NCBI GenBank assembly: GCA_004431415.1
Contig: QPMI01000127.1
Span: 1-64,000, forward strand
Source: Cyanophora paradoxa CCMP329
Taxonomy: Eukaryota; Plantae; Glaucophyta
Length of the DNA stretch: 64,000 nucleotides
Reading direction: 5' to 3'
Shown here: piece by piece, positions 10,258-36,541 of the stretch
Position numbering within the stretch: position 1 is the stretch's first letter
Layout: each line of letters begins with the position of its first letter
Made by a program: the position numbers and the translations under genes
The notes under the pieces: generated by a model
What the model was told of the DNA's origin: nothing
Seen by the model: the letters and a program-made list of their open reading frames with translations, nothing else
Databases searched by the model: none

Positions 10258-10369
10258 CCCCGCAACTTCAGCGGGTTCCGCATCTTCGGTGTCATCGGGC
10301 GGCGCGGCTCCGGGAAGACGACCCTCATGCTCGACCTCATGTACCACTACAGGCACATCGAGTCGGGGG
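10258..10369 (+). pseudogene. A32-like packaging ATPase, fragment 1 (Walker A)
   Basis: RIFGVIGRRGSGKTTLMLDLMYHYRHIESG. Confidence 0.85.
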
Positions 10370-10824
10370 CAGCACCGGTGCCAGGCGCCCTTTGGAAGGT
10401 GATGCGCGCTATCCAGGCGCGCTCTATGGCGGGGTCCCCGAATAGATCCCCATCCTTCCCCAGAAACTCTTTGTCTTGTTCATTCGCGGAATCCAGAAAC
10501 GGCTCCCGGCCCGCCCCCGCACGCACTGCATTGAACAGCCTCAGGATCGTCATAGCCCCCTCGCCGGCATTCTGGAAATCGCGGAAGTTGAACCTCGTAT
10601 CGCCTGACCGGCTGTCCTTGTATCGGACGTAGAGGCGAACCGCCGCTATCTCCTGCTGGACCGTGCGAGCGTCTGCAGTCTTCTGAGCGCTTCCGTCAGC
10701 ACGTAGGGCTCCCTGAAGGACAGGGGGTCATTCCTGCTGCGGCGCACCCCAACGCCCGCGAACCCAATAGCCTTAGCACACTCGGGCGACAAGAAGGTTG
10801 TTGCACCCTGTATTTCCTCCGGCC

Positions 10825-11100
10825 CCGAGGACCTGGGGCGGGACGAGGGACACCGAGCAGCCCATCACGTAGAGCGTCTGGATGTACTGGAGGATCGCCT
10901 CGCGCGACTCGCCGTCCGCCGACGCCCAGAGGCCCGCGACGTCCAGGGAGGCGCCCCCCGCGAACGGAATTGGGGGATAGGACCTGTCGGAGAGGATCTC
11001 GGCGCCCCTTCCGGCCAGGAGCATGTCGCCGTGGGGCTTCAGCGCCTGCACGAAGGCCTGCATAGGGGCGGTGGGGCTGCGCGGCCCGCTTCTGCGCGAA
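10825..11100 (-). pseudogene. conserved NCLDV hypothetical protein, internal fragment
   Basis: LWASADGESREAILQYIQTLYVMGCSVSLVPPQVL resembles the algal-virus motif AxWQYLQTLYMLG...IP. Confidence 0.6.
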
Positions 11101-11359
11101 GTGCCACGAGGGGCTGGGCAAGGGCGGCGACGAAGAGGCGGCCGACGACGACGACAACGGTGGCGGTGAAGAGGAGGAGGAGGAGGGGGAGCATGAGCAG
11201 GAGCCGGCGCCGGCGGCGGGGGCGGACGGCACGGCGCGCCCAAGCCACGATCCGACTGGGGCAGCAGCACCGCCACCGCCGCCACCGCCACCGCTGCCAC
11301 CGCCACCAACGGGCACTGGGCGCCGGAGGCCGCTGCGGGTGGCCAAGGGTTCGGGCTCA

Positions 11360-11539
11360 ATGACAACTGCGGGCTACGGTCGGCTGCTGGGGAGGACTGT
11401 CACGGCCCGCTCGGTCCACCCGGTGATGCCCGAGCTAATCGGGAAGCCCGTGCCAGAGAGCACCGAGCTGCACTGCTGGCACTGTGTGCACGCCTTCAAG
11501 GGGCGGCCCGTCTCGCTCCCGTACCGGCAGGAGCGCGAG
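11360..11539 (+). pseudogene. VLTF2-like late transcription factor, fragment 1
   Basis: PESTELHCWHCVHAFKGRPVSLPY (CWxCxHxF zinc-finger half). Confidence 0.85.
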
Positions 11540-12191
11540 GTCAGGCGGCAGGCAAGGCATGGCGGCGCCCTGAGGCCCCCGCCAGCGCCCCAGACGGCCG
11601 CGGCCGCCCAGATTGCCATCCCGTCGCGCGTGTCGTCGCCGGCCGCCTCCGCCTTGCGCAGGGCCGCCGCCGCCGCGAGCTGATGGCCTCCGTTCTCGGC
11701 GGCCGGCGCCGCCGGGCCGCCCCGATGGCCTTGAGCTCCTTGTTGACGCGGGCGATCTCCAGGCGGGCGCGGGCCTTGGCGACCTCGAGATCGAGGGCAG
11801 CGCGGGCCTTGGCGGCCTCGAGCTCCTGGGCGGCACGCTGGGCCTCGCGCTGGGCCTCGGCCTTGGCGGCCTCGAGCTCCTGCTGGAGGAAGCTGTCGGC
11901 CCGGTGCGCGCGCGCACCGCCCGGTCGGTCCGTCCGCCCGTCCTTCCGTCACTCATGACGTCACACAGGGTCCGCCCTCGCCGTTCGACTCGCTCGACGA
12001 CGCTCCTGCTGCAGGGGATGCCCGACTGGTTCGACGGCGCCGGCGCCGCCATTGCCGTCGGGGCGCACCACGATGCGGTCATGCGGGCGCCCCCGCCGGG
12101 CTCGCTGCAGCCGGTCCCGTTCCACGACGGCGATGGCGGCGCCCCGGCGCCTCCGGTCCCGGGCCTGCCCGGCGCCGGCGCACGGCCGGGC

Positions 12192-12330
12192 CGCGAGCTC
12201 CCGCGCTTCATCTGCATGGGGGTCTTCTGCTCTTGGTCGTGCGCCAAGGCCTACTGCATCACGTCCGGGAGCGTTCACATGCAGCGCGCCCTGTCGTGGC
12301 TCGGGCTCCTCTACCGCCGAACGACGGGCG
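12192..12330 (+). pseudogene. VLTF2-like late transcription factor, fragment 2
   Basis: RFICMGVFCSWSCAKAY...LLYRRTTG (GxFCSWxCxKAY). Confidence 0.85.
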
Positions 12331-12434
12331 AGCAGGGCTCGTTGTCGCCGTCGCAGCCTCTGCCGCCCTCGTGGTGGCCATGGCGGCGACGCTTATGCAC
12401 CTGTGCCGCCGGCAGGGGCGGCGGTGATGGGGCT

Positions 12435-12730
12435 CGCTGCTCCTCGTAGTCCCTGAGGTACTTCATGCTATCCAGGAGCCAGTCGATCTCACCCGACGCC
12501 GCGCGCCGCGCCTCCTCCTCGAGCTCCCGGCGGCGCCCGGCGAGCTCCGCCAGGCGGTCCTTCAGCGCGCGGCGGCCAGGGCCGGCCTGCCCGGCCGACG
12601 CCGCTTGCAGCTGCCCCTGGACATCCTGCATCTCGCGGTCCAGCTGCCGGGCCTCCTCCTGCGCACGCCTCTGCACATCCTCGTAGTTCCGCATCTTCTC
12701 CTCCATGCTAGCGTAGAGGCTTGTCTGGTC
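12435..12730 (-). pseudogene. VLTF3-like late transcription factor, N-terminal coiled-coil fragment
   Basis: Coiled coil ending EIDWLLDSMKYLRDYEEQR, similar to the E.dYLLD.skYifDY motif preceding the VLTF3 zinc ribbon. Confidence 0.55.
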
Positions 12731-13020
12731 GTCACGAACCCGCCGCCGCCTCCGTACTGGACCCTCGTCACGTCGCTGCCTCCGCCACCCGCCCCCCAGA
12801 GCTTGACGGTCGCGCTGGTCACTCCGGCGGGTACGGTCCACGTCTGGTCCGCCCCGGTGTAGCTGAAGATAAGCTTCGTGACGGCCGTGGCGGCGCTCGC
12901 CCCACGGAAGTAGGACATGAGCATGGTGGTGCGGCTCGAGGGGACGCTTGGGGCGTTCGCTGAGGCGCCTACGAAGGAGCCCCCCTTGAAGAGCTGCGAG
13001 AGGTAGACGGGCCCCGTGAT
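12730..13020 (-). CDS. glycine-rich-domain virion/surface protein fragment (paralogue 1)
   Basis: FSYTGADQTWTVPAGVTSATVKLWGAGGGG. Confidence 0.75.
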
Positions 13021-13095
13021 GCGACGGTGACGGTGGCCGCGGCAGTGGGCGCCATGGGCGTGCGTATGTATGTATTGCATGCACTCTGAATAACA

Positions 13096-13362
13096 TCACG
13101 ACGCCGCGTCCGCGCCGGCGCCCGCCCGGGCCCCCGCGCCCAGCGAGATCTCCCCCGTGCCGACCTTGATCGCCGCCGCCAGCATCCCCAGCTCCTCGCG
13201 GGCCTGGGCGGCCATGAACTCCTCGACCAGCGGCGCCAGGGGCGGCGGGAGCGTGGCCCAGACGTCGACGCGCGCCATGAAGGCGTAGGACTCGCCGGCG
13301 CGCCTCTCCTCCAGCACGAAGGTCGGGCGGATGCCGAGGAGCTCGGCGCCGGCCACGGCCAG
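13096..13362 (-). pseudogene. conserved NCLDV hypothetical protein, C-terminal half
   Basis: GAELLGIRPTFVLEE...ATLPPPLAPLVEEFM; appears to continue 34310-34604. Confidence 0.55.
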
Positions 13363-13635
13363 CGCTACGAGGCGGAGGCCGCCGCGGAGTACGAGAGCCG
13401 CTCCGGTCAGATCTGCCTCCAGTTCGGGCTCATCTCCCACCCGGACCCCGAGCTGGCGTGGCTCGGGGGCTCCCCTGACCGCGTCACCCTGGCGGGGCGC
13501 CTGGTCGAGATCAAGTGCCCCTACAAGAGGGCCATCACGCACCAGTGCCCCAAGCACTACTACGGCCAGGTCCAGATCCTTCTCGAGTGCCTCGACCTCG
13601 AGGTCTGCGACTTTGTCCAGTACAGGCCGCCTGCC
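13351..13635 (+). pseudogene. YqaJ-like viral recombinase/alkaline exonuclease, internal fragment
   Basis: HGQRYE...FGLISHP...WLGGSPD...LVEIKCPYKR...HYYGQVQILLECLDLEVCDFVQYRP; startless so missing from the ORF track. Confidence 0.9.
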
Positions 13636-13999
13636 CTCCTCTCGGCCCTGGTCTCCGAGCTCCCGCCGGACGACGCGGCGCAGATCAGCTCGCTCGTGCC
13701 GGTGGGGCTGCGGCTCCAGGAGGCGGTGCGCAGGCAGCGCGAGGAGGTCATCGTGCGCATGGTGGCCGAGCGGCGCGTCCTGGAGCAGCAGGCGGCGGCG
13801 CACGCGGCGCGGGCGGCGGCGGCCGAGAGCAAGCGGGCCTACTACGACGGGCTGCGGCTGCGGAGGAGGGTTCAGGCGGATTCCGAGTCGGATTCGGGTC
13901 CAGAGTCGGAGGAGGATGGGAGTGCCCCCTCGTCGCCCAAGCGGAGGCGTCGCTCGGCAGCCCTGGACACCCGCGCTTCGGAGTAGGAGCTCTGTAAAG

Positions 14000-14270
14000 A
14001 ACACACTAGATTCGAAGACACGAAGACCCCTAGAGACACGACCGCCAAGACTAGATGCGAAAGAGACACGTAGCTAAAGTCAAGACCACCGGTTGCGAGA
14101 GGAGATTGCCAAGACTAGATGCGAAAGAGACACGGAGCTAAAGCCAAGACCACTACTTGCGAGACACGTAGCTAAAGTCAAAAGACCACGGAGATTGCCA
14201 AGACTAGATGCAGACAAGCCACAGCTTCCAAAGACACTACCACAACTGGCTGCTAGACAGCACAGAGAGA
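14000..14270. repeat. A-rich degenerate minisatellite
   Basis: gccaagactagatgcgaaagagacacg(t/g)agctaaag(t/c)caagaccac at about 14044 and 14108, partial copies at 14161 and 14190. Confidence 0.8.
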
Positions 14271-14494
14271 TGCCGGCAGTGGCCTCACGGGTCCTGCGCC
14301 TTCGGATCCGCCGCCCTCTCCTCCCCCCTGAGCCTCGCCAACTCACGGTTCGCGGCATCGAGCTCCTGGCGGAGCCGGAGGATCTCCTCGTCGCGGGGGT
14401 CCGCCGGGGCCGGCGCCATCATCAGCGCCGAGGCGCCCGGACCGGCGCCCGCCGCCGCCGCCGCCGCCGCCTCGGCCGGCGCCGGCGCCATCAT

Positions 14495-14840
14495 CCGCGT
14501 TGCTGCCCGTCCCCTCGCCCGCAGCGCCCCCCGCATCCTGCGTGCCACCTCCTCCTCCGGCGCCGCTGGTACCCCTGGTGCCAAACCCTGTCAGCCCTCC
14601 CGCCCCGCCGCCCTTGGCCGAGCTGTTGCCGCCCGCCCCGCCACCGCCCGCCGTGATCAGATCGGCACCGCCGGAGCGTATGGCCGACCGCCCGCCGCCG
14701 GAGCCAGCGTACTGCGTCCCGTTCATCGCCCGACCGCCCCCGCCATACACCACATTTGCGGCCTGGGTACCCGCCGCGCCAGGCCCACCCACCATGACAG
14801 TGAGGGTCTCTTCCGGGACAAGGGAGAGCACACCGGAAAC
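14495..14840 (-). CDS. glycine-rich-domain protein internal fragment
   Basis: VSGVLSLVPEETLTVMVGG...SGGGRSAIR...DLITAGGGG. Confidence 0.7.
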
Positions 14841-15060
14841 TCCAGCTCCCCGATGAACTCGTCCTGCCTCGCCGTGCTTGCGAGCAGGGGCACGAGCGAG
14901 TCGCTGAATAGGGCCAGCGCGGGCACGACCTGACCGTCCCAGAGCGCCGCGTCGCGCGCCACCTCCTGCACGCACACCGCCCCGCTCCCGTGGTGGTACT
15001 GCACGTGCAGGCCCGTAGGCCGGTCCAGGAGGAAGAGGTAGGCCTGCAGCTGGATCGCTC
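14840..15060 (-). pseudogene. second YqaJ/PD-(D/E)xK-like nuclease, C-terminal fragment
   Basis: IQLQAYLFLLD...VARDAALWDGQVVPAL resembles the Q-x-Q-x-Y and RD..LW motifs. Confidence 0.55.
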
Positions 15061-16714
15061 GACGGCAACGCGTGGACCTCCCCGGCCCCCGGCGGCACCT
15101 TCGAGACGGGCCGCATCTCCCTCTCGACGCGCGGCGACCCGGGCGCCGCTTCGACCTTCGCGGCGTTCCTCGACGAGGCCCTCCCCGACGGGCCGGCGCC
15201 CCTTGCTGGCGTGTACCTCCGCTCCCTCTCGGTCTACTACCAGATCGGCGCCCAGACAGTCCGGGCGGCCCGCGGCCGGGGGCCGTCCTCGGCATGCAGC
15301 TGCGGGCGCTTCTCTCGCACGCGGACCACCTGCGGCAGCTCGCGGGCGAGGGCGGCGGCGGCATGACGGTCGGCCTGGTCGAGCGCTGCCACCTCTCGTC
15401 GCAGGAGGTCTTCGCAGAGTACTGGCACGGGCGCGGCGACCTCTCCGGCCCGGAGCGGGACCTGCTGCGGGAGGCCACCGCTGCCCTCGCGCCCCACGAC
15501 CCCCGGGGCAAACGGGCTTCGGCGGCCGGTCGCCGGCAGCCCGGGCCCCCCCCACCCCGACGACCAGCTCTGGTTCGAGAGGGCCTTCCCTCGCCTGATG
15601 GAGATCGCGAACTACCGCGTCCCGTTCCTCATGGCCAAGCCGGCGCGGCCGCCAAGGCCGCTGTTTGAGTACCCGCCCCGGCCCCCACCGCCCTCTCAGA
15701 GTAGGGTAAGTCTACACGGCATGTCGTCGTCCTCCCGTCAGCAGCTGCTCCGGCCCCAGTCCGCCCCGGCCCCCCGCGGCGCCCGTGGTTCGCATGCACA
15801 TGCCGGAGGCGGCCCCGCGCCCCCGCTCCGGTCCGGGCGCTACGCCCCGCGCGGTGGGGCCGGCGGAGGCCGCCCCCCGCACCCCCCGCATTACATCGAG
15901 GAGTACGACGAGGAGGACATCGAGGGGGACGAGGACGGAGACGACGACGATGATACCTCCTCGATTGGCGGCAGTGACCTGGCGGACGCGTTCCTCGGCG
16001 ACTTCTTCGAGCACGTTCTGACCTCGTCAAAGGGGCCTGTGTCGGCCGCAACGGCCTGGGCCGCCGATGATTGGGCCCGCGGGCTCGCCGACTACCTCGC
16101 CGAGGCCGGCACCGAGGCCGGCATCGACGAGGTCGTCGCCGTTGCCGAGCTCATCGAGAAGTCAAAGGGGGTCGCGTGCTACATCGGGGCGATGTACGCT
16201 GGCTTCGTGAAGGAGGTCAACGGCGGCGGCGGTGCCCCCAAGCCCGCCCAGTCCCAGTAGTATCCCAGCACGCGGTCGCGCCAGGCCCCCGTGTTTCTCT
16301 GCAGTGTGCTGTGTGTGTGTGTGTGTGTGTGTGTGCGTGCAAACAGGCACGGCATGCTGCGGCCCCTCCGCCCCCAGAACCGCACGCTCACCGAGGCCGC
16401 CCTTGATGCCCTGTCGCGGTTCCTTGAGCTCCCGCGCCTCCTCTCCGCATCCCCCGCCATCGAGAGGGAACTGCGTGAATCCGAGGGGAGGCAGAGGAAG
16501 CTCTTCCGGCGCGGGCGGGCCTTCGCCCTCCTCGACGAGTTCAATGACCTCGTCGAGAAGGTCCGCCTCCTGGCGGCGCAGGCAAGTGCCGACTCTGACA
16601 CCGCCCCCCCGGGCCGGATCCACGGGGGGGGTCCGGTGGCTGCCGACGCCGCTGCCCTCTGGGAGCTCGCCCAGTCCGCGTGGCTCCCGAGCACCTTCCG
16701 CCTCCCCCTCGGGC

Positions 16715-17052
16715 CCGTCTGCGCCCAGTCTGGCAGCAGCGCCGCCTGCTCGGCGCACACGGACAGGTGCACCAACGGCTGCCCCTTCACCGCCCCCTGG
16801 CGGACGGCGTGCGGCTGCGAGGCGGGGCCCCCGCGGAACGGGAACGCCCCCTGCCCCGCGGGGGACGCCGCCTGCGCCGCCACCTACTGCGCCAACGGCT
16901 GCGTGCCGGGCGAGTTCCGCACCGCGTGCGGCTGCGAGGCGAGCCCCGTCCCGGCGTACCTCGACTCGCGCACCTACTGCGCCTCGGGCTGCCGGCCGGC
17001 GGAGACGAGGGACCCCGTGTCGGGGGCGTGCAGGCTGCCGCCCCGCAGCTAG
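16715..17052 (+). CDS. Cys-rich repeat protein C-terminal fragment
   Basis: CTNGCP, CANGCVPG, RTACGCE repeats. Confidence 0.65.
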
Positions 17053-17293
17053 GAAATATTGTCGTCGCGATGATGAACCAATCCAAATGGCCACCGCCGC
17101 GCGGGCCCTCGCGTACGCCGTCCTCGCCGTCCTGGCCGCCCTGGTGGCCGCCGGGCTCTACGTCGCCCTGGTCCTGCGGTGGGACCGCGCCCGCTTCCGC
17201 GCCGAGTACTGCCGCCGGTGGTGCGGCAGGTGGCCGCGCCTCTGCGTCGGCGTCGTCGGCGGCGGGTGCGGCCCGGTCGGCGGCGGGGCCGCC

Positions 17294-17339
<46 letters not shown>

Positions 17340-19116
17340 CGGCCCCGCGCCGGCGCCTGGCGGGGTCCTCGCCCTCCTGGAGAACACGAGGTGGGACCCC
17401 CCTGCCGACGCCCACATGACGTACCAAGAACAGGGCCTCGTCGCGCCCCACGTCGGCGGGAACAGGTACTGGTTCGGCCCCGGGGGGCGGGGCGCTCGCC
17501 GCTTCTTCCACTACCCCGTCGGCCAGCCGCAGGCCCCCCGGTGGGCACCCGGCATCCCCCATGATTTCGCGTATGTAGTCAAGCAGGAGCAGGAGCCGCG
17601 CACGATCAGGATCGACTTCGACGGAGGCATCTTCTCGTCGTTCACCATGGAGCTCTCGGACGATGGCAGCACCCTGACGGTCCCCCGCTCCTGGGTCATC
17701 ACAGGGGACAACAGGCAAGCGGGTTCTCCTCGGCCCCGCCGGGTGGCCCTAGTTTGTTTGTAAATCCGATATATATATTATATATATATATAATACATAC
17801 GAATACACACATACGTAACAGCACGCCCGCCGCCGGCGGGCCCCGGCGCCTAGTCGAATTTTCTAGTGCCTTGCTGGGCAACATGAATGTTCTGCAGGCG
17901 CTCATCGAGGGGCGGGTCCAGGGCACATTGAAAGGGCGCCTTCCGGGCCTGGCCTTTGCTATTGCCCTCGTGGCCGCTGGGAAGATCAACTGGGTCGTCC
18001 TCGACAACCCGCGCTGGCACCGGAGGGGCATAAGGCCGTTCAACAGGAATCAGATCCACTTGATCCTTCTGGGCTTCGGGTACGAGCGCATCGTCGGGGG
18101 CGACGGCACGTGGAGGTACGAATTCTGGGCTCGGGCCCCCCGCATGAGCTTGGACCTGCTCAATCGGCGGGAGGTCGAGGGGCGGTGGCCGAGGGGGACG
18201 GAGTGCCTTCGCGTGCTGTTCTTGAGCACGGTACATCTCTGGGCGGAAGAGTTCTCGCTTCCGGTGCCGCCGTCGGCCGACCCCCCCGTGCCAACCGAAG
18301 ACCCCCAGCGGTTCGACGTCGACGGCTGGCTGGCTCAGGCGTACGGGCTGCCCCCGCTCGGTTGGAATATAGCAACTGCCGTACAGAGTAAGCTCACAAT
18401 TTGGTACGAAGCTGTCCCGGCCCCCGCTGGCCACAGAGTGCCGCGTGCCGACCCGCGGGTCCACGAACGGGGCAACGCGCAGGCCAACTCGATCATGTCA
18501 ATCGTCGCCGCTCGATCGCGCGGTTCACGAGGCGGCACGGGGGGCCGGAGGCGGTAAAGTCTGCGTGCAGGAGCGGAACACGATCGTTCTCCGGCCAGAA
18601 GGGGGTCCGGATCACGCAGTCGCACACTGCGGTTGTTGAGTAGGCGCAACCCCGTGTTGCCGAGGGGCGAGATGCCGATGAGAGGGGTCAGCGCGCCCCG
18701 GAGCCTTGGCTCCATGTTGTTCATAAAGTCGTCGATGCGCAGGAGCGCATTCTCGCACTGGGCCAGCGCCCTCGCCCGGGCCGCCTGGACCAGCGTGCGG
18801 GTCGGCATCTCTAGCACACTGCAGCAGCAGGGAAAAAACGTGTCTCGGGCTTGCGTGGGGGAAGGGGTACAGCAAAACGCGCGCGGACGGACGGTCCGGC
18901 GACGCAAGCGGCCAGCCGCCGTCGATGTGAGTGCTCCCGGGCCCGCATTTGCTCTTCTGACGCATCGGGGCGCCCAGGAAGCGCAGGATGACGCAGCCCG
19001 AGGCCGACCTGTCATCATCATCGCCGCCGGCTGCCGCCGAGCAGGAGCAGCAGCAGCAGCAGCAGCACCCGTGCTGGGGCGGTGGATGAGCCGGCGGCGG
19101 GCGTGCAGGCGGCGGG

Positions 19117-19303
19117 CGAGCCCGTGTCAGGCACCTTCAGCCTAAAGTACCTGCTCTCCTTCACAAGGGCATCCAGCCTCTGCAACTCCGTGGACCTCTA
19201 CTTTGCCCCCCATTTCCCGATCATCGTTGAGTACGCGGTCGCGAACCTCGGCCACCTCAAGTTCTGCCTCGCCCCGCGCCAGGGCGACGTGGACATGGGT
19301 TAG
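19117..19303 (+). pseudogene. PCNA: PCNA sliding clamp, C-terminal fragment
   Basis: GTFSLKYLLSFTRASSLCNSVDLY...FPIIVEYAVANLGHLKFCLAP (NCLDV-type ending). Confidence 0.9.
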
Positions 19304-20580
19304 GTGCATGTAAACGAATGATTCCTGAGTGAATTTCCGTGAGAGGAGAAACATCAAAGGAGGGGAGGGGGGGGTTCAGTCCCGCATTCGCCGCCGAGTA
19401 CCGCCGCATCGTCCTGGGGCGGTCGGGGCGCATGTACCACGCGCGGGACCCCGTCCCGGGGGTGCTCCAGTCGGGCTTCGTGCACGCCGTCCCGGGTTAC
19501 ATGATCTCCACCTGGACAAACCTCTTCATCAGCGCCCACCGGTCCGGGGTGTACGAGAGCGCCATGCTCACGGGGCCCGGCTCCGTCCCCTGGCTCTCCA
19601 TGACTGCCCTCGCGCTGGGCTCGGCGGCGCTCCTGGCGGCCGCCGCCTACCGCAAGCAGCGGCGCTGGCGCCGGGTCCTGCAGCGGCGGGGCGCGGCCGA
19701 GGCGCCGCCGCCGCCGCGCCCCGCCACCCCAGTTTTCGTGCGGTAGGAACGTGCAAATTACATAGTATACATTGGGGTTCAACTTCCGCCCGCCAGCGCC
19801 CCGGGGAGCCTATACAGCCGCGCCGCCCGCCGGTTCCAGGCGAAGAGGAGCTCACGGCGCGCCCCGACGACCCAGCACCGGAAGCTCCGGAAGACGGAGC
19901 CGGAGGCGGCCGCCATCGAGCCGGCGCAGAAGACCTCGTTAGCTTCGACTACGGCCCCGTCTCCTGGCGCGCGTGGCGGGCGATGTCGCTCGTCGAGGCG
20001 CACGATCTCGACACCAAGCCCGTGGGCGGCCCCCGCCGGCGCCGGGCACGCCCGGCGGGCCCGCGCCGACCCCTGCCCCATCGTAGCCTCCTCGGCGCCT
20101 GAGTACATGTCGAGGATGGCCTGCTGCAGTCCCGACAGGACCCCGTCTGGGATGTACATACCCGCCCAGAGGATCCAGAATGCGAAGAATGAAACCCCGA
20201 AGAGGTCATGTCTGCAGTAGTTGGCCCGGCGGGCGAGGAACCAGCGATAGGGTGCTACCGGGTTTTCCACCCCTGGGAACATTGCCGTGGCCCGTGTTAC
20301 TAGTTCCTGGTCTGGAGGCTGCTCTTCACTGTCCGCGTCGAGCACGGCCTGCCTGGTGGCCCTTGATATGCCGGCAATCTGCACGGGGTTCAAAGAGAAG
20401 TTTTGACCCTCGTACATCTTGATCAGCACTTCCTCGGCTATGTTTGATTGCGGTTGCGAGTTCCCCATGTCTGGGTCATGATCATTTCGAGAGAAAAAGT
20501 TCGAAGCGCGGCCGCAACGTACCGCGGCCGTATCGGGCCCTCGTTTCTCCCGCCACACCCAGTAAGGCCCATCCTCCTCC

Positions 20581-22401: not shown

Positions 22402-22868
22402 CCCGCCCTGCACCCGGATGGCGGATCGGCCGCCGCCGGACGCGTTCAGAGACCTGGCAGATCCCCAGGTCGTGTAGCCACCACCGCCGTAGACGGCGCT
22501 CCTTGAGCCCGTTCCGTTCCGACCGGCGCTCCCCACGATGAAAACGAGGGTTTCGTCCGGGGTGACGGACAGCGTGCCGGAGACGAAACCCCCGCCCCCG
22601 CCGGTCGAAGGGTTGTAGCCGGAGGCCGATGTCCCCGCGCCCCCCGCCCCCCACAGCTTGACGGTCACGCTGGTCACGCCGGCGGGGACGGTCCACGTCT
22701 GGTCCGCCCCGGTGTGGTTGAAGATGAGCTTCGTGACGGCCGCGGCGGCGCTCGCCCCACGGAAGTAGGACATGAGCATGGTGGTGCGGCTCGAGGGGAC
22801 GCTTGGGGCGTTCGCTGAGACGCCCACGAAGGAGCCCCCCTTGAAGAGCTGCGAGAGGTAGACGGGCC
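22402..22868 (-). CDS. glycine-rich-domain protein fragment (paralogue 2)
   Basis: Near-identical 5' part to 12730-13020 (GPVYLSQLFKGGSFVG...), diverging after KLWGAGG. Confidence 0.75.
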
Positions 22869-27155: not shown

Positions 27156-27257
27156 TCTCGTGCCACTCGGCGGTGCTCGAGGCGAGGACCGGCTCCTCCT
27201 CCCCCCGGAGCCAGAGCTCCCAGTTGAGGTCCAGGTGGACGTCGGAGCGGGCAGGTG

Positions 27258-27289
<32 letters not shown>

Positions 27290-27310
27290 CAGCAGCAAGG
27301 GTCGGGCGTA

Positions 27311-27425
27311 CGCGCTTCTCGGTCAGCTGGCACGCGGCGGCGAGGCCGGCGAAGGCCGGGAAGTCCGAACCGATCGCCGAGATGATCAGGTCCAGCAGGG
27401 CATCCTCGAGCTGGCGAACAGTCAA
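27311..27425 (-). pseudogene. F-box-like exon fragment
   Basis: VRQLEDALLDLIISAI...LAAACQLTEKR followed by GTACGC donor-like sequence. Confidence 0.45.
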
Positions 27426-27954
27426 GTCCGGACCGGAGCCTCTTCGTCGAGCTCCCCGAGGAGGCTGCGGCGCCCCTCGCGCGCGCCCTGGGCGGCCCCG
27501 GCGTGCCTCCTCTGCCCCGAGCTGGTCGAGCGGGCCCTCCTCCTCCTCCCGCCGCGCACGAGCGCGGCGTGCTTCCTCGACGGCCCCGCCATCGGGGGGA
27601 ACCCGCTCGAGCTGCCCTACCTGTGCGGCCTGGAGGGGGGGGAAGGCGGCTCAAACAGGGCCTTCGAGGGGCGCGGGCCGGTCGGGTGCATCTCGCTCAG
27701 CCGGGAGGGGGCGCCGGCGGGCCGCGGCCCGCGGCCGCCCCTCCTCCCGCTGGCGCCGGCGCTCTTCCACTCCCTCGCCTGCACGGGCCGCGGCCGCGGC
27801 CCGCGCCGGCCCTCGCCGCCGCCGCCGCCGCGCCGCCGGCCCCTGCCGCCACAGGCCGGGGGTGGGTATACAACGTACCTGATCGAGCGCGGCCAGATCG
27901 TGGACCGCGACGGTCGCCCTCGAGGGGGAGCGGGCCGGCACGCCGGCCGACCAC

Positions 27955-28215
27955 CTTGACCACGCCCTCGCCCCGCTGGTCCTCGCGTGCAACGTGCACG
28001 TGCTCCTCCTCGCGCTGCGCGGCGCATGCGACGGCCCCCTGCGCCCTGCCTACGTGGGGGCCGCCCTGGGGCTGGCGGCCCTCGGGGGCCTGCTCTTCCG
28101 CCTCGCCCGCAGCACGCATGCTGCCCCCGGGCCCCAATACGAGCTCCTCCACCCCTGGTGGCACCTGGCGGCGGGCGCCGGCACATGGGCCCTCTTCGCG
28201 AGCATGGCGCGCTGA
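27955..28215 (+). pseudogene. CREST-superfamily (ceramidase/PAQR-like) membrane protein C-terminal fragment
   Basis: LDH...TM helices...LLHPWWHL (HxxWH motif). Confidence 0.55.
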
Positions 28216-28250
28216 ACATTTTTCGGCATGTGGGGTTGTGTAAACACCCC

Positions 28251-28670
28251 ATGGTCTCCGCCGCCTCCGCCTCCTCCTCCGACGCCGACTCGGCGCCGGA
28301 GCGCATCCTCCTCCAGGCCCTGGCCGTTGGTGCCGCCTGGCAGCTCCTCCCCCGGGCCCACTTCTTTGGGAAGGAGGAAGCGAAACGCTGGGTCCCCTGG
28401 GTCGGTCGCTTCTTCACCGCCTCCGTCGCTGCCCGCGTCGCCGCGTTCCTCTTCTGGCGGTTCTTTGACCGCGACCACCTCAACGCCTCCCTCACGGCGA
28501 ACCGCTGGGACGCCTTCAACTTTTACGGCACCCTGACGGCGGTCGCGGCCATCTTCTTCTTCGCCGTCTTCCCCGCCTCGTGGGTCTCCGTCCCCGCCTT
28601 CGTCGGCCTCCTCCTGGCCTGGTACCCGGTCGCCCTCTGGGCCGAGTCGCGCGTCTTCAACGCCGATGCC
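28251..28670 (+). CDS. multi-TM membrane protein (3' truncated)
   Basis: Several hydrophobic helices. Confidence 0.5.
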
Positions 28671-30533
28671 GCCGGGCGGGGCCGCGCGCGGCGCGCAGCG
28701 CCGCCGCGAGGCCCGCGGCGGCCGTCGCCAGCGGCGGCGGCGCGTCCGCGAGCGCCGCCAGGAGCCCGGTCGCCGCCCAGGCCGCGAAGAAGCGCTCGGC
28801 CGCGGTGCCCCCGGGATCCGGAACGGGCGCGGGCGTGGCGCCCGGCGCCGGTGCGCATGCGGCGGGCGCGGTGCACATGGCGCCGTCGCCGGTCGGTCTG
28901 GGAGATGGAGGGGGGTACAGCGAAAAAAAATGTCGAGCATGTGTACTACGTACACTGAAGGAACATGGCGCTTATCATACCTGCAGCCGGCAAGTGCGAA
29001 GACCTTGCCACCGACGACTTCGGTGATCGCCTGGAGGTCATGAGCGACCTATTCGGGCGGCTCGACCGGAAGGGATTCAACGGCAGCTGCAATGCGCCCC
29101 AGAAGCGGTACACTCTGACGGACAGCGTGAAGATCACGGGCGCCGATGCAGTGGGCGCGCTCCGGGAAATCTACACCGCGATGCGGACTGCGCCGGAGGA
29201 CCGGGGCGCGGCCGGCGTCCTGGGCGCGGACGACTCGAGTGGCAGTGGCGGTTCTGGGCTTGGTCCCGGCGGAAGGCATCCCGGAGCTGCCTGTCATCCT
29301 CATCGGCGAGCCGTGCCACGGTGGCCGCGTCGAGGCGATCGACCGTGTACCCGGGGTCGTGCCCGGGTTGGCCCTGCTGACGAGAGAAGAGCGGCATCGT
29401 GCAGTAACCGTAAGTCCCGGAGGCAGACCGGGGCATGCGCGGGTCCGCGGTGACGGGGCTGCCGCCGCCGGCCACCTGCACGATTGAGGACCTCGCAAAG
29501 TTGCCGAGGAGGGGTTCCGTGCCGCTGGTAATATAGGGCAGCTCGGTGAACCCGGGGCACCTCAGGGGGGGGGGCCCGGGGCGGCCGGGGGGCATCCAGG
29601 GGGCCGCAATGGGGATGAAAGCGGGGTACTCGGGAAGAATGACAAGCTTGTCCCCTCTGGCCGTGTCAAGCGTTCTCTCTCGCTCGTTACCTCCGACCAG
29701 TAGGCCGAACACGCGCCTCACGTCATTCATGTTGAGTCTGAATTTCTGAGCCGCCTTGAAGAGCCGCCGCGTTCGTGTGGGCCCCGCGACCTCGTTTGTC
29801 GAGTTCTTTACCTCGTCCTCCTTCAGCGGACCTATGATGTTCACGAAGATCTGGTAATACTGTCTTTCACTCTTGCTGGACTCTTTGTTAGGTCGGACCA
29901 GGAAGTTGACTGGGACCCGAGTGGCCGGGTCGTACATGGCCCACTCCGCGAGTTTAATGATGCGGATCGTCCCGACGTGGTGCTCGTTGCCGGGTACAGG
30001 GCCACGCCCCCTGCCCTCGGACCTCTCGTCGGCCTTCGAGATCGGGGCGCAGGTGGCCCGCCTGGCGGCGCCGCCTGCCTGGGACGGGGAGCCCTACCAG
30101 CCGCCCGCGGCGGCCTCGCCCGCGGCCCCCGACCTGCGCGGCGGGCCCGGGCCGGTCCCGGAGGTGGTACCAGGGCCGGCCCTGCCGCCGGCGCACCTGC
30201 TCACCTACCACGTCGTCTGGCCCGACGCCCCCGGCACGGGGAGGCTCGACCTCGCGGCCTACCGCATATCACGCGGCATCTTCGTCCTGGCGGCGCGCTC
30301 CAACCCCGCCGCCTGCCTCGCCCTGCGCTCCGCCGACGACCCCGACCCCGAGGGGGCCTCGCTCACCCGCTGGGACCCTCGAACTGGCGCGCGCGCGGCG
30401 CGGCCGCCTTCTGTTCGAAGGGCGCGGTCGTCTGCTGCTGCTGCTGCTGCTGCTGCAGAGATACGAGGAGGGCCATGGTCTAGATCTGGTCGGTCCGTCT
30501 TTGTGCGTCGCCGGTACCCCCCCCCCCCCCACT

Positions 30534-30905
30534 CTACCGCGCCACGAGCAACACCACGAGCAGCACCGCGGCTCCGATGAGGAGTATGTTGTTGTCCACG
30601 CCTTTAATGAGCTGCCCGCCGGCCGCGCCGTTCGTGCTCGTGGTCGTGCCGCCGCCGCCGCCGCTCGCGCCTCCCGTGCTGCCGCTGATCCCCCCGAACG
30701 AGCCGCCCGTGCTCGGGTTCATGACGGTCTGCTGCGTCTGGTTCCCCGAGATGTTGCAGGAGAAGGTGACGTTGTTCCCCGTCCCGGTCATGCCGATGGC
30801 CCCCGAGCGGATCGTGCACGTGCGCACGTTCGCCGTGCACTTGGCCCCGGACTCGGTCGTGAGGAGGATGTCCTGGATGCCGGACTGCGTGCAGGGGTTC
30901 ACCCC
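30534..30905 (-). CDS. Cys-containing C-terminally anchored virion membrane protein fragment
   Basis: C...C...CTI...NNVTFSC, Gly/Thr linker, terminal TM LLIGAAVLLVVLLVAR*; architecture like NCLDV entry/fusion proteins. Confidence 0.5.
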   Translation of the reverse strand, partial: GVNPCTQSGIQDILLTTESGAKCTANVRTCTIRSGAIGMTGTGNNVTFSCNISGNQTQQTVMNPSTGGSFGGISGSTGGASGGGGGTTTSTNGAAGGQLIKGVDNNILLIGAAVLLVVLLVAR

Positions 30906-31904
30906 GGATGCACCGGACGTCGCCTACTACCCGCCCGCACTCTACGCCGACTCGGGCTTGGATGTACGTGCGCGCGCCCACCGCCGCCGCCGCCGGGCTC
31001 CGGGTCGACGAAGATGAAGTTGACGATCGGCGCGTGCTGCGGTTCGCTGGGCTCCGGCCCGGAAAAGCGTGCTATCGGGAAGGTGTCGAGCCCGGCGCCG
31101 ACGTACAGGAGCGTGCGCGCCGGTCGCTGGGCGCCGGTCCGGCCACGCTGCTGCGGCGGCATGCGTGCGTGCGTGCGCGCGCGGGCGCCGGACGGACCGT
31201 TGGGGGGGTACACACTGATGTGGCGCGTCGGACGGACGGACCTGCCGTATATATATACATATATAGCACAGCGACCGAGCTAGCTTATCTCCACTGCCAC
31301 TGGCTCCTATGGTCACGCTTGTAGCTGCGGACCTCGAGCGCCGCCGCTGGCGCCGCCGCCGGGCGCGCGACCCGGACGCCCATCTCGAGGTCGACGTCCG
31401 CCGCGTCCGCGTCGACCCAGGCGCGCTGCACCACGAAGAAGGCTTGCGGGGGCCGCGACGGCGCGAGGCGCTCGACCGTCGCCGTGGCCAGCTCCAGGGT
31501 CGAGTACACAGGCGTGGGATCGCTTCGGCGCCTCCATCTCGCGCTCGGGGTACATCGACCTTCGTTCGCGCGCAGTGCACCTTTAGATTCGTGGAGGCCG
31601 GTTCGGTCCGACCTGTCCGTCGGCCGGCCAACCGGAGAGCCCGTCAATTGCAACATGTGTGCCATCTCTTTGCTTTGCCGCTGCCGCTGCCGGCGCCGAC
31701 CGACCGGCGCGCAGGTCCGACCGCAAGCGACCTCTGGGGGATGATCATGATCAGACCGCAAGCGACCTCTGGGGGAAGCTCGACGACGAGCGCTCGTCTT
31801 CTCCGCGGCGGGACCCGGACGTGCGCGCGCGCGCTCCGTTCCGCCTCTCCCCGCCCCGCCTGACGACGCCCGTGCCCGCGCCGCCCGCAGCCGGCGCCGA
31901 CTCT

Positions 31905-31937
31905 GCAGCAACAGCAGCAGCTCTGGCAGTTCTGGCT

Positions 31938-31969
<32 letters not shown>

Positions 31970-31982
31970 TGCTGCAACAGTT

Positions 31983-32056
<74 letters not shown>
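31905..32056. repeat. (CAG)n microsatellite with interruptions
   Basis: Long gca/cag runs with two caacag...ctggcag interruptions. Confidence 0.9.
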
Positions 32057-32057
<1 letters not shown>

Positions 32058-33423
32058 CTCCGCCTCCCTCCACGGCTTGACCACATCGAGAATCTCATTC
32101 GGGAGCGGGATGATCTGATCGACACCAGTCTGTGGCATGGTCCTGGCTATGCATTGCGGCGCCCCTACTTGATGGTGCCGGACGAGCCCGGTGCCCCCTC
32201 GGCGGTCGCCGCGAGCAGGACGATGGCAAACAGGCCGCCCATGCAGATCCAGAAGTCCTCCACCTGCTGCGGGCTCAGCCGCAGCGGGCTGCTTCTCGTG
32301 CCGTTGGTGCCGCCACGGTGGTTGTTGTTGTTGTTGTTGTTGTTCCTCAAGAGGAGCATGGTAGAGACGGACATGTTTTGCACAACGACGGCGAGCCGGT
32401 CGGTCTGGGAGCCGAGGGGGGGTACGCCCGCCTGCTGCTCTACGCAGCGCGCACCAGCAGGCCGGTGCACGCACCCGGCCCGCTCCCAGGGAGCACCGAG
32501 AGCACCAGCACGCCGGGCCGGGCGGGGGTGCCGGTCCCGGGGCCGGGGCAGAGCACCCACATGTGGCTCGTAGATAATTGGTCCGATATCCTCCGGTACC
32601 GCCCACCAGGCCGGTGCAGACCTGCGCGCCCCACGTACACCAGCCTCGAGCAGGCTGGCGTAGTCCGCCCCTATAAGGACGCAGAGAACAAACATTGCAT
32701 TATCCCGAAGCAGGTTGCGGGCCTTGAGAGCCATCTGCCCCAATCTCCGACGAAACCCTGGGGTGGACCACTCCGGGGGGTCATTTGGGAACTCGCGTAT
32801 CAACCTTCGGTCCGAATCCCTTATCTCGTCCCGCGCCATCCTGAAGCTGGCGTAGAGGTTCAACTCGTCGGGCGATCCCATCAAGTACTCTGCCCCAGAC
32901 TTTGCAACCACAACCTGGGCCGTCTGCGCCGGCGTGTTGCCCCCGCTCGCGTATCTGCTGGAGGGCGGCCCGCGCCGACGCCAGGGCCCGCTCGCGGGCG
33001 GCAGCCCGCTCCTGCCGGGCGAGCGCGGCCTCCTGCGCATCCAGGGCGGCCCGCTGCTAGGGGGGGGGAGGGGCCTTAAGCGCTGAACGTGCCGAGAACA
33101 CGTACGTACACGCCCGGGAGGGCGGGGCCGGCGCCGCCGCCAAAACCGAGGAGGGCCCCCCCGTTCTGTTCGCTGGCGGCCTGGACGACCTGCTGGGCCC
33201 GCCAGCGAGCCTGATCGGGGTCGGGCTCGAACGCTGCTACAAGGCGGCGCGCGACTCCGGCCTGGCGAGGTACCTAGAGGGCGCGAGGGCCCGGATGCGG
33301 CTCGCCGCCGTCCAGCGGCTCAGCTAGGCGCCCGCCACCCGCCCCACCCCCTCTCCTCCGACGAATGGAAACAGCTGTACAGATATGGATTCACATACAC
33401 ACACACACACACACACACACTTC

Positions 33424-33783
33424 TTACAGATAGTACGAAGGAGTTTCGTTGCCGAAGATGCTGGAGGCATCGACGACCCGGACGCCCCGCGGGTGCTCGG
33501 AGAGGGGGTCGAGCTCCATGGTCTTCATGTTGTTCCTCTGCATCATGCCGTCGAAGACGCCCCGCAAATCCGGGGGGACCGCGGCACGGAGCTTGCGGTA
33601 GTCCTTCCACACGGCCATCAACGTTTGCTGGCAATCATCGCGCGTCTTCGGGTAGCTGAGCGGCACAAGGAGCCCATGCTTCGAGAGACGACTGCCGAAG
33701 GTCGTGTCCGAAGATGGCACGCAGATGGGCCGTTGAGACCGGGCCTGTAGCTGGGACGGACGTTGACATGGGAGAGCCGCCAC
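33424..33783 (-). CDS. hypothetical protein
   Basis: 119 aa ORF, A-tract upstream, (TG)n tract downstream. Confidence 0.5.
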   Translation of the reverse strand: MAALPCQRPSQLQARSQRPICVPSSDTTFGSRLSKHGLLVPLSYPKTRDDCQQTLMAVWKDYRKLRAAVPPDLRGVFDGMMQRNNMKTMELDPLSEHPRGVRVVDASSIFGNETPSYYL

Positions 33784-33837
33784 TGGTTACTTCGGACTTT
33801 TTTTTAAGTCAAATCCGAAGTGAGCACGGTCTGCGGC

Positions 33838-34315
33838 TCAGTTCTGTATCACCACCAACCCACTCCCGCCGACCGGGGCATCGAAGCTGCCCCCGATCCC
33901 CACGCCCGCCTGGTAGTCCGAGTCCAACGAATTCCCCGGGGCCCGGCCGCCGGCGGCGGACGTGGAGCCACTGAAGACTCCGGGGCCGCCGTAATAGCTA
34001 GAGCCGCCCCCTCCAGGCCGGGAGCTGTCCCCAGCGGAACCTCCTCCGTAGTAGCCCGCGCCGCCGCAGCCACCTTTGAAGCCCACTATGTTGCCCCCCG
34101 TGTACTTGGAGCCTGCATACGCCCCAGAAAAGGAATTGCTCCCAGCCCCGCCCTCCGTCTGGGTACCGCCCTTGCCGCCATCGGCACGGCTCGAGTCGCC
34201 ACCCTGAAGGCCGCCGCCAAACCCGCCCGCTGCCACTTCCCCCCCGCCCCCGCCCCCGCCCGCTGTCATCAGATCATCTTCACCCCCTTGCAGGCGAATC
34301 GCGGACCGGCCTCCA
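33838..34315 (-). CDS. glycine-rich-domain protein C-terminal fragment
   Basis: GGGRSAIRLQGGEDDLMTAGGGG...GYYGGG...GGSGLVVIQN*. Confidence 0.75.
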
Positions 34316-34604
34316 CCGTCGACTCGATGCGCCACCGGGTGGGGGCCTCCTTCGTCAGCCGCTGACGGCTGCGGGCGTGGACGCGCCCGCCGGCGAAGAA
34401 GCCCCGGACGGGGCCCGGGATCGCGCCCGAGTCGACGTGCGACCAGAACTCGAGCGCCCGCGTCCCGTCGGCGGCCCACCGCTCCGGTATCCTGCACCCG
34501 GCGCCGTGCACCAGCCGGAGCACGCGCGCGCCGTACGCGAGGTCCAGAGCCTGCTCCATGCCGCCGGCGCGCACGAGCACGGGCGGCAGCGCGACCGTGA
34601 TCAT
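34310..34604 (-). pseudogene. conserved NCLDV hypothetical protein, N-terminal half
   Basis: ALDLAYGARVLRLVHG...IPGPVRGFFAGGRVHARSRQRLTK..RWRIESTV. Confidence 0.55.
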
Positions 34605-36088
34605 CGCGCAGTGGTGGTGGCGGCGGGGGGGCATGCCTCCGTCGGTCGGTTCGTCGCTTTTTCGCAGTACCCCGGTAGGCGCGCGGTCCGTCGGTCGGTC
34701 CGACCCGCCCACAGCAAGCTTAGACATGGCGGGCGCCGGCGGCGGCGCGGCGGCCTCGGTACCCTCTTGATGGCGAGGGCGAGCCGTTTGCCGCCGGGGG
34801 TGCCCACGGCATCGAAGGCGGCGGCGACCTCCTCGGCGGCCTTGAACAGCTGGAAGAAAGAGACCGTCACCGCCTCGGCCCTCTGCAGGAGGAGGAGGGC
34901 GGCGCCCGCGGCCCGGCTGGGCGCCGTCCCGCCGCCGGCCCCCGCCATCAGGGCGCCGGCGATCGCGCTCACCGCCGGCAATTCCGGCGGCGCCACGCCG
35001 TAGATCGCGACCGCCAACGAGACCGCCGCGCCCCGCCCGACGCAGAGGGAGACCCGCCTGCTGCCCACGGTGCCGATGGCGTCGAAGGCGCCGGCGACCG
35101 CCGAGATGCTGTGGGCCAGCTTGGCGAACGCGTCGGTCGCCCGCTGGACGGCCGCCACCTCCGGCCCCGCCTCCGCCAGGAGGATGCTCTGTACCACGCT
35201 CACCAGCTCCCCGCGAGACCGGATGATGATCGGAGGCGGAGGCGGGGGCGGGGCTGCCTGCTGCTGGGCCGCCTGCGCCTGGGCCTGGGGCTGGGCCGCC
35301 TGCGCCTGGGCCACCTGCGCCTGGGCCCGCGGCTGGGCCGCCTGCGCCTGGGCGCCCGCCGGCGCTGCCACTGCCACCAGGGCGAGGGCCGCGGCCGCCG
35401 CCGCAGCGGCCTCCTCCCGTGCCCGGGCCGCCACCCGCTCGAGGAATGTGCCCTTCAGGCTGTGGAGGCCGAGCCGGAGCCCCCCGCCTCCATGGCCTCC
35501 GCGGCGCGCAGGGGCCCGAGCTCGGCGGCGAGCGCGGCGTAGAAGGAGCGGGTGCTGCCCCCGCGGGGGAGCATGAGCGCGTGGACCGCCGCGACGGCCT
35601 CGTCCGTCGTGATGCGGTCTTCCGCATCGAGCCGGCCGTGGAGCTCGCCCCCGCCGTGCCTATGCCGCCCCCGGGCCCGGACCCGGGCCTCCCCGCCGGC
35701 CTGGTCCCCGGGGCCGGCACCTGGACCGCCGTCCACCACGTCTCATGGCCGCATCAGCACGCTCGAGGAGCGTGTGCGCACCCTCGAATCGGAGCTCTCC
35801 GACACCAAAACAGTCTCCGCGCTGGAGGCAGCCCTCCCCCCCCTCTTGCGGGAGAAGCCGCCCGCTGGCCCCACCCGGCCGCCGCCAATGCCGCCGCCGC
35901 CGCCGGCGGCCCCTTCGCTGGCCCTGATCGCAATTGAGGATGCCCACTCCTCGGCGTCTGTGTCGGGCGGCACGTAGAAGCAGATGTATGTGTCACCTCA
36001 ATAGCCACACACACGCGTACGACTACACGGGGGGGTGGGTGGGCGCCACGGGGGCGGTAAGCGGCTCGGATGGCTCGTCGGCGAGTGG

Positions 36089-36541
36089 GGGGGTCATCTT
36101 CTCGCCGACCGAGTCGCCGGCGAACCCCACCTGGGCCAAGCACTGCCCGGGCCTCTTCATCCACTCCGAGTACGACCCCGAGGTCATCCGCGGGATCGTC
36201 AAGAACCAGCAGCGGATCGCCAAGAGCGGCCGCAAGCCCCCCGGCGTCTTCATCGTGCTCGACGACTGCATGTACAACAAGAACGCGATCTCGAACGACA
36301 AGTACCTGCGCTACGTATTCCAGAACGGCCGCCACAACGGGATCCACCTCGTGATCGCGGCCCAGTACCTCATGGACCTCGGCCCCGCCCTCCGCGGCAA
36401 CATCGACGTCATATTCGCCTGCTCCGAGAACAACGACACCACGCGCAAGAAGATCTGGACCAACTTCTTCGGCTATATGGACTACCTCGCCTTCAAGCAG
36501 GTCTTCTCGCAGGTGACGCAGGACTTCGGCGTCCTCGTCGC
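36089..36541 (+). pseudogene. A32-like packaging ATPase, fragment 2 (Walker B, arginine finger)
   Basis: GVIFSPTE...LFIHSEY...FIVLDDCMY...FQNGRH...QYLMDLGPALRGNIDVIF...RKKIWTNFFG...TQDFGVLV; lacks Walker A and the C-terminus. Confidence 0.95.

Follow-up and report, generated by a model that had tools for sequence, protein, structure and literature searches.

Introduction

Endogenous giant viruses that are found broken are usually taken to be products of slow decay. In ciliates such as Oxytricha, scrambled genes are held as pieces permuted in order and orientation, with overlaps of a few bases that are unique to each join. Endogenous giant viruses (GEVEs) have been reported in Cyanophora paradoxa (10.1101/2025.04.15.648976), and eroded GEVEs are known in Euglena gracilis (PMC12455990) and in Acanthamoeba (10.1101/2024.10.31.621330); these accounts tell of invasion by transposons, duplications, pseudogenes and regions of chimeric origin. 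In Ectocarpus, a phaeovirus tyrosine recombinase uses 2–5 nt of homology and integrates the virus without loss of sequence, and one of the two partners is described as a conserved attP with an invariant CC, used at both ends of an intact provirus (PMC13236599). The packaging genes of mirusviruses are reported to be trans-spliced across about 30 kb (PMC12768974). Our search of the literature found no description of giant-virus genes reshuffled without gaps, as in the locus analysed here.

A cluster of cut viral genes

The window, i.e., the whole stretch of 64,000 nucleotides analysed, holds a dense Nucleocytoviricota gene cluster comprising A32, PCNA, YqaJ, DUF5832, DVNP and other families of free viruses, and is part of a Nucleocytoviricota genome, likely integrated in the chromosomes of Cyanophora paradoxa. 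No host flank lies within the window, and integration therefore rests on a protein identical to a window product, which carries the genome label of this glaucophyte alga, and on the GEVEs published for the species.

Eight of the nine viral genes for which an intact free-virus protein could serve as a ruler are cut. The DUF5832 gene (36685–37050, minus strand) is cut at its 3′ end and matches positions 7–77 of 189 in its profile and 1–46 of 81 in Pfam. A conserved giant-virus protein of 160 amino acids is represented by a middle piece cut at both ends (10821–11078, minus strand; ruler residues 42–123 of 164), and PCNA by its last ~75 residues only (19067–19300, plus strand; ruler residues 182–254 of 259; PCNA_C). 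The YqaJ exonuclease lacks its N-terminal ~65 residues (13351–13671, plus strand; profile positions 68–176 of 207), and a conserved giant-virus protein of ~245 amino acids, which we take to be glycosyltransferase-like, is present as a C-terminal piece (53446–53642, plus strand; ruler residues 186–224 of 245). For most of the cut genes, the window yielded no partner piece; three pairs can be tested, namely those of A32, a glycine-rich gene and a VLTF2-like gene, and all three fit gap-free. As the window has no fewer than three partner pairs, besides numerous other cut genes, the shuffling characterises the viral element as a whole and not one gene.

The A32 packaging ATPase in two abutting pieces

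Where one continuous frame of ~260–290 codons would be expected, the window holds the A32 gene as two pieces on the plus strand, 25.7 kb apart, with the termini absent. Piece 1 (10258–10369) covers residues 17–53 with the Walker A motif (89% to the intact 293-residue relative P0005; profile E 1.4e-9), and piece 2 (36089–36539) covers residues 53–202 with the xxTE, Walker B and NGRH motifs (82% to P0005; profile E 9e-58). A reading made earlier from the sequence only had proposed that the two pieces of one ATPase join exactly and restore the expected spacing from Walker A to xxTE, and the comparisons bear this out. The stretches matched to P0005 (10258–10368 and 36090–36539) follow each other with no gap, a profile of 120 homologs with X placed at the break reaches its highest score when a single residue fills the break (240.6 bits, versus 232.9–235.3 bits for 0, 2, 3 or 4 residues), the joined protein needs no gap at the join, and the Walker A–xxTE spacing is that of P0005 and of the 120-sequence profile. 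Trees made separately place each piece as sister to P0005 (support 0.80 for piece 1 and 1.0 for piece 2), which argues against an origin of the pieces in different viral lineages. The extreme termini, which the same reading took to be missing, are indeed absent from the window (residues 1–16 and 203–293), and the window gene is split into at least four pieces. A candidate C-terminus at 31864–32115 was rejected, as its weak profile match is a glutamine repeat.

The intact relative P0005 just passes the Pfam cut-off for PF04665 (Pox_A32; 22.9 versus 22.8 bits), and piece 2 on its own has no Pfam match at E 0.005. The nearest named A32 is that of Heterosigma akashiwo virus 01 (42% to P0005). Since the lineage formed by the window copy, P0004 and P0005 has at most 44% identity to every other sequence among the 150 best matches, we assign it to no order; the viral and metagenome contigs searched held no close kin, only relatives at 33–44%.

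Piece 1 ends in five G (10365–10369) and piece 2 starts in a run of seven G (36087–36093), the in-frame overlap being 36089–36093. Three registers yield a 5-nt overlap and one alone is in frame, so that the register is set by the protein and not by the DNA alone; a 5-nt overlap occurs in 1.0% of random joins in the window. The G-run does not mark recombination sites in general, as the overlaps of the other pairs differ and, at the join position, the five G are absent from a second viral copy that the organism carries. At the A32 junctions, a motif of 10 nt was picked post hoc (4 matches versus 1.2 expected; reached in 2 of 100 shuffles); it was likewise rejected as a recombination site, since neither the other pairs nor the second copy has it.

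The other two ends at this junction belong to ORF X (10370–10727, minus strand), which is cut at the piece-1 junction, and to tail Y (36023–36088, minus strand), a candidate for the end of ORF X, comprising its final 21 codons with the stop. ORF X is the low-scoring best of six frames, and its search for homologs returned none, with Atlas matches only to unrelated phage clusters at 0.88–0.92. The open minus-strand frame that the reciprocal join had been said to leave is present and is the best of six, though weakly (1.6 versus 0.8 and below), with no ruler for tail Y. An open frame of 21 codons is nothing remarkable in DNA of 70% GC.

Two further pairs and their reciprocal products

The N-terminal part of the glycine-rich gene, Q1 (12734–13011, minus strand; Gly_rich_2), corresponds to residues 2–97 of a paralog within the window and ends at the overlap 12735–12734, whereas the next part, Q2 (14490–14840, minus strand), corresponds to residues 93–152 and starts at the overlap 14840–14839. 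Q2 sits upstream of Q1, i.e., in permuted order, and the two abut at residue ~96 of the paralog with an overlap of 2 nt. The paralog (22405–22866, minus strand) is continuous over the position of the join and is itself cut at about 22400. On the reciprocal side, the join supplies a stop to the C-terminal piece P of a YqaJ-like nuclease (14839–15055, minus strand; ruler residues 187–234 of 247): the resulting TGA at the cut lies 22 residues past the last ruler match (all four rulers end after 13), and a stop at this position arises in 0.5% of random joins with a 2-nt overlap. The coding piece that follows the Q1 junction in the coding model (12440–12733, minus strand) may resemble the N-terminus of VLTF3, an identity for which two follow-up comparisons gave no confirmation. 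As a C-terminus of DUF5832 the same piece (12733–12440) was rejected, at 2.2 bits and with no simple in-frame reciprocal.

The third gene, which we take to be VLTF2-like and which has a zf-FCS motif, comprises piece a with the start codon (11426–11563, plus strand; profile positions 2–27 of 168), piece b (12183–12350, plus strand; ruler residues 230–277) and piece c, which lies 5.9 kb away on the opposite strand (6424–6492, minus strand; ruler residues 279–301). Pieces b and c abut at ruler residues 277/279 with an overlap of 3–4 nt, and several in-frame options exist within about 4 codons of the cut. The reciprocal join puts a start codon and about 10 codons (12351–12381, minus strand) in frame with the plus strand from 6484 onward, and the continuation from the start codon at 12381 is the best of six frames, with 63–67 open codons.

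The overlaps at the three pairs (5, 2 and 3–4 nt) have no common motif, and no shared flank is seen by eye. Each reciprocal product alone is weak evidence, and the tail of ORF X has no homolog for comparison; with sensible products at three pairs, the idea of a true reciprocal exchange, which had been set beside chance for A32, holds up.

It is very improbable that the pieces are exons joined in RNA by trans-splicing, as in the mirusvirus genes. Near the A32 junctions, one GT/AG pair does join gap-free and in frame (cuts at 10361 and 36085), but it combines a poor donor with a GAG acceptor that has no pyrimidine tract, and it drops two codons with a match in the intact relative. The glycine-rich and VLTF2-like pairs have no gap-free splice option, the pieces border directly on other gene pieces without a spacer resembling an intron, and trans-splicing would leave the reciprocal products unexplained.

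The arrangement in short-read contigs and the second viral copy

In short-read runs that may be of the source strain, a single contig spans 9912–12918 with no substitutions in all three DNA runs examined, and a single contig spans 36044–37250 with no differences in run X18, the one of four runs examined in which this stretch is present. The junctions at 10258, 10369, 12350, 12735, 14840 and 6490 are crossed in all three DNA runs; X18 has contigs across the 36089 and 36539 junctions. Because short-read contigs cross the A32 junctions, the arrangement at the junctions tested is real DNA and not an assembly error. The window does contain single-base indel errors relative to these contigs, which would be in keeping with a faulty long-read assembly, but misjoins are refuted at every junction listed above, and we give practically no credence to their having made the junctions. 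Piece 2 has no contig in two runs guessed to be RNA, to which we attach no weight either way.

In the second viral copy, A32 is continuous across the join (P0004; a 21.9-kb X18 contig and a 9.7-kb X21 contig). The P0004 gene model spans only residues 44 to about 118; this copy may thus be cut elsewhere, an error of the gene model or an indel being as likely. Contig depth is similar for the window copy and the second copy (92 versus 111). A joined form of the window copy is absent from the short-read contigs examined; contigs drop rare variants, and a rare unscrambled form may exist.

Rearrangement with frames left open

We tallied about 20 cuts in some 3 kb of ruler-matched gene, none of them a same-frame split, and the 14 ruler-matched stretches contain no stop in 1,046 codons, which bounds neutral change at about 3% per site (Q2, whose true frame is open, was left out of this count). 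Across the window, the coding model recognises 123 segments with a median length of 220 nt; at 62 places one coding segment directly abuts another, and 28 of these abutments switch strand. Some same-strand abutments in the model are assembly indels. No integrase or site-specific recombinase family, and no transposase or retroelement family, was found among the roughly 490 of 948 window frames scanned, and no long repeats flank the pieces among the 20 largest direct families and the 25 longest inverted pairs.

Gradual rearrangement of a silenced insert by host double-strand-break repair at microhomologies, i.e., slow decay, is distinctly unlikely to have given this pattern. Short overlaps are typical of end joining, but end joining at microhomologies normally deletes sequence, whereas both products here look complete; the cuts are dense, yet stops are absent, and the frames scanned hold none of the mobile-element families sought. 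Rearranged and recombined viral inserts are nevertheless on record in Acanthamoeba (10.1101/2024.10.31.621330) and Euglena (PMC12455990).

Discussion

With moderate confidence, we consider that an endogenous giant virus was disabled by a burst of exchanges that lost no sequence and tolerated differing sequences, probably in the form of overlapping inversions. Its genes are cut at intervals of a few hundred bases and their order is changed, without loss at the tested joins; the likely agent is an enzyme that makes reciprocal exchanges at 2–5 shared bases. That the other two ends also yield sensible products suggests that each event was a reciprocal break-and-rejoin. The events may mostly have been overlapping inversions within one locus, by which all pieces would stay nearby; reverting the VLTF2 inversion (6490–12350) places the two A32 sites in inverted orientation to each other, which a single further inversion would then resolve. 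The shuffle was presumably fast relative to point mutation, and candidates for the enzyme are a viral recombinase or topoisomerase of low specificity and a host function directed against viral DNA. The exchanges may precede or follow integration, and the virus was likely disabled for good.

The precision of the joins and the lack of decay fit equally a programmed, reversible scramble, in which a latent virus would be stored in encrypted order and rebuilt on activation, with the 2–5-nt overlaps as pointers and with guidance, as in ciliates, from an RNA or DNA template or from recombination in a set order. We regard such a programme as rather unlikely. Gap-free joins with sensible reciprocal products, open frames and partner pieces kept within 2–26 kb speak for it, as does undepleted CpG (O/E 1.04 in the window) despite the methylation reported for the viral genes and GEVEs of this alga (10.1101/2025.04.15.648976). 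However, motif-free overlaps of 2–5 nt cannot specify what may be 100 or more joins without a guide, none of which was found, and the same pairwise fit is expected from a random reciprocal process. One-way exchange is further favoured over a programme by the second copy, which is uncut at the A32 join, by the contigs, among which no joined form was found, and by the scanned frames with no recombinase family.

Rearrangement that runs far ahead of point mutation, with both sides of the tested joins intact, suggests that viral DNA was actively processed. A host-driven process would be an undescribed means of neutralising an integrated virus; one that is virus-driven and reversible would be a new form of latency, and a programme of the kind considered above would amount to a virus that unscrambles its genes in the manner of ciliates. 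Screens based on marker genes can overlook or misinterpret elements of this kind, as A32 piece 2 illustrates. Cyanophora paradoxa is a cultured model alga, and the question is directly accessible there.

Comparison with known systems

The window shares with published protist GEVEs a Nucleocytoviricota gene cluster in a protist assembly, broken core genes and recombination as a route of decay. It differs from them, as far as the available accounts go, in that most of its genes are in pieces and out of order, while partner pieces fit gap-free, the reciprocal products make sense and stops are absent. As a member of the A32 family (PF04665), the window copy has the Walker A, xxTE, Walker B and NGRH motifs and differs in being split. 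In the terminase genes of Mirusviricota, a packaging ATPase gene likewise lies in parts about 30 kb apart, but the account gives canonical splice sites and one gene, whereas most genes are cut in the window and one of three pairs has a splice option (PMC12768974). Phaeovirus integration likewise combines 2–5 nt of homology with an exchange free of loss, but one of its partners is the conserved attP site (PMC13236599); the exchanges in the window are internal, numerous and share no common site. Loss-free reciprocal exchange, as made by site-specific recombinases, is seen at three pairs (the reciprocal side being weakly supported in each), and the conserved site of such systems is replaced by three differing overlaps. 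Compared with scrambling of the Oxytricha type, the pieces in the window are joined directly, without an eliminated spacer, in a viral element and not a germline genome, and with no unscrambled form among the contigs; what the two have in common are permuted pieces and short overlaps specific to each join.

The A32 gene and its join

The A32 packaging ATPase gene is split into two plus-strand stretches, piece 1 at 10258–10369 and piece 2 at 36089–36539, as the sequence-only reading had claimed, and the split is a real, unusual feature within a giant-virus element that is shuffled throughout. Three proteins proved close to piece 2 when it was used as a query: P0003, a gene model with 171 residues 100% identical to the window; P0004, a paralog of 88 aa; and P0005, an intact 293-aa protein of Logan origin, which reaches the Pox_A32 cut-off. 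P0003 and P0004 both carry Cyanophora paradoxa as their source label. Piece 1 corresponds to P0005 residues 17–53 (89% identity) and piece 2 to residues 53–202 (82% identity), with the Gly53 codon common to both. A profile of 120 A32 homologs, given an X at the break, prefers exactly one residue. Neither comparison needs a gap at the join, and the exact abutment proposed earlier therefore holds. Treed alone (46 and 47 rows), each piece is sister to P0005, so that the check for different viral lineages found a single grouping. The termini, already suspected to be missing, are absent from the window (residues 1–16 and 203–293, P0005 numbering). A 12-nt direct repeat lies at 36080–36093, the start of piece 2, and at 36567–36579, ~30 nt past its end.

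Further partner pairs

The N-part of a glycine-rich gene, 13011–12734 (−), directly meets the part that continues it, from 14840 (−), at residue ~96 of a paralog at 22866; the order of the two is permuted, and they have two bases in common. The N-termini of the two glycine-rich paralogs form a 231-nt duplicate (12783–13013 and 22638–22868, 95% identity), beyond which they diverge sharply. At the cut of the paralog begins a piece running from 22400 downward (−), which resembles the N-terminus of a conserved giant-virus family, DUF5764; a Pfam search with 23 of its residues gave no match. The VLTF2-like pieces, measured against intact homologs of free viruses (rulers, built on loci of viral contigs, 225, and of metagenomes, 80), are 12201–12344 (+), ruler residues 230–277, and 6492–6424 (−), residues 279–301; several in-frame cuts are possible, with 3–4 bases in common. 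The gene names VLTF2 and VLTF3 and the label glycosyltransferase-like are presumptive. Random joins within the window share two or more bases in 20% of cases, three or more in 7.7% and five or more in 1.0%. Trans-splicing of the pieces is very unlikely, a gap-free GT/AG option being available in only one of the three pairs.

Reciprocal products

The open minus-strand frame noticed at the reciprocal A32 join is present: the ORF at 10370–10727 (−) gains a 21-codon tail and a stop, and this tail is the best of six frames, though weakly. In the glycine-rich reciprocal, the C-terminal piece of a YqaJ-like nuclease gene, 14839–15055 (−), acquires a TGA right where it is cut, 22 residues past the last matched residue; all four nuclease rulers end 13 residues past that position. 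For the VLTF2-like reciprocal, a start codon at 12381 leads into the sequence beyond 6484 in the frame that scores best of the six, in a reading that was the second one tried and presupposes another cut near 12400. The alternative, a longer ORF on the minus strand with its end near 12440, yielded only a poor frame. Jointly, and with no single one decisive, the three products favour break-and-rejoin without loss.

Extent of shuffling

Giant-virus families are spread along the window (GC ~70%), and eight of its nine ruler-matched genes are cut: A32, VLTF2-like, DUF5832, a conserved 160-aa protein, PCNA, YqaJ, a second YqaJ-like nuclease and a 245-aa protein. The ninth, a short acidic protein near 6860, is apparently whole, as is a DVNP-family (dinoflagellate/viral nucleoprotein) gene at 9593–9889 (+; Pfam E 1.7e-12). 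Four glycine-rich stretches are likewise partial. A coding model, trained on the window's own sequence and with no junction positions supplied, switches state at 10262, 10370, 36087, 12733 and 14839; it yields 123 coding segments (median 220 nt) and 62 direct coding-to-coding abutments, 28 with a strand switch, some of the same-strand ones being assembly indels. Cysteine-rich repeat coding stretches with 75–102-nt units lie on both strands at 44244–49385 and 62514–62971; they are likely pieces of one surface-protein family and a possible source of additional partner pairs. The stretches 46010–46388 and 58209–58597 are paralogous (75–81% identity).

Junctions as real DNA and a second viral copy

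That the junctions are misassembled has next to no probability, since short-read contigs cross them. In all three DNA runs compared, one contig covers 9912–12918, with no substitutions and one 1-base gap at 11719, and further contigs cover 3954–7076 and 14494–16300; one contig of run X18 covers 36044–37250 with no differences. The runs possibly come from the source strain, which is irrelevant to excluding misassembly. At 36044–36073, 15 nt ahead of the piece-2 junction, short-read contigs are interrupted and a 36-nt side contig of half depth appears, which may be a variant, a repeat or a sequencing tip.

Runs X18 and X21 also contain a second viral copy, with 20 differences over 136 nt, which is continuous across the A32 join and lacks the run of five G there. 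Its 13 listed differences affect 10 codons, six silently and four conservatively. This copy, seen in the contig matching 36090–36225, belongs to the same organism and is related to that of the window (~85% nucleotide identity). Its gene model, P0004, spans only A32 residues 44 to ~118, so the copy may be cut elsewhere.

History and tempo

The A32 sites are at present direct repeats, and recombination between them today would therefore excise 25.7 kb. The A32 and VLTF2-like events are interleaved (6490 < 10369 < 12350 < 36089); if the VLTF2-like inversion is reversed, piece 1 turns around, and one further inversion then joins A32. Overlapping inversions in one locus would thus be a sufficient history, under which the pieces would stay local.

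Fourteen ruler-matched stretches (1,046 codons, one stretch left out of the count) contain no stops, and 3.4% of single changes create one, so that neutral change since loss of function is below ~3% per site. CpG is not depleted. By our tally about 20 cuts fall within these genes, and a structural-to-point ratio of such size far exceeds that of ordinary mutation; this speaks for an active and rapid process behind the rearrangement. Slow decay driven by repair is given little weight. A reversible programme is slightly less improbable: the precise joins, the lack of decay in the pieces and the local partners speak for it, whereas the overlaps are too short and too dissimilar to serve as addresses for a large number of joins, the junctions share no conserved site, the second copy is intact at the A32 join position, and no integrase or site-specific recombinase family was found in about 490 of the 948 window frames, those scanned. 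Nor do the short-read contigs include a joined form of the window's own copy, although rare forms get lost in contigs. One-way shuffling of a giant-virus element is the probable account.

Comparison with known systems

Full-text literature searches, which covered few subscription papers, found no description of a base-exact scrambled giant virus. The accessible text of a report that C. paradoxa GEVEs are methylated (10.1101/2025.04.15.648976) does not contain the word 'fragment'; other systems compared are the endogenous giant viruses of Acanthamoeba (10.1101/2024.10.31.621330) and Euglena (PMC12455990), phaeovirus integration in Ectocarpus (PMC13236599) and the trans-spliced terminase genes of mirusviruses (PMC12768974). 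On the best reading, the underlying known kind is an endogenous giant virus. If the scramble proves reversible, it would be categorically new; the comparison that offers itself is with the scrambled genes of ciliates.
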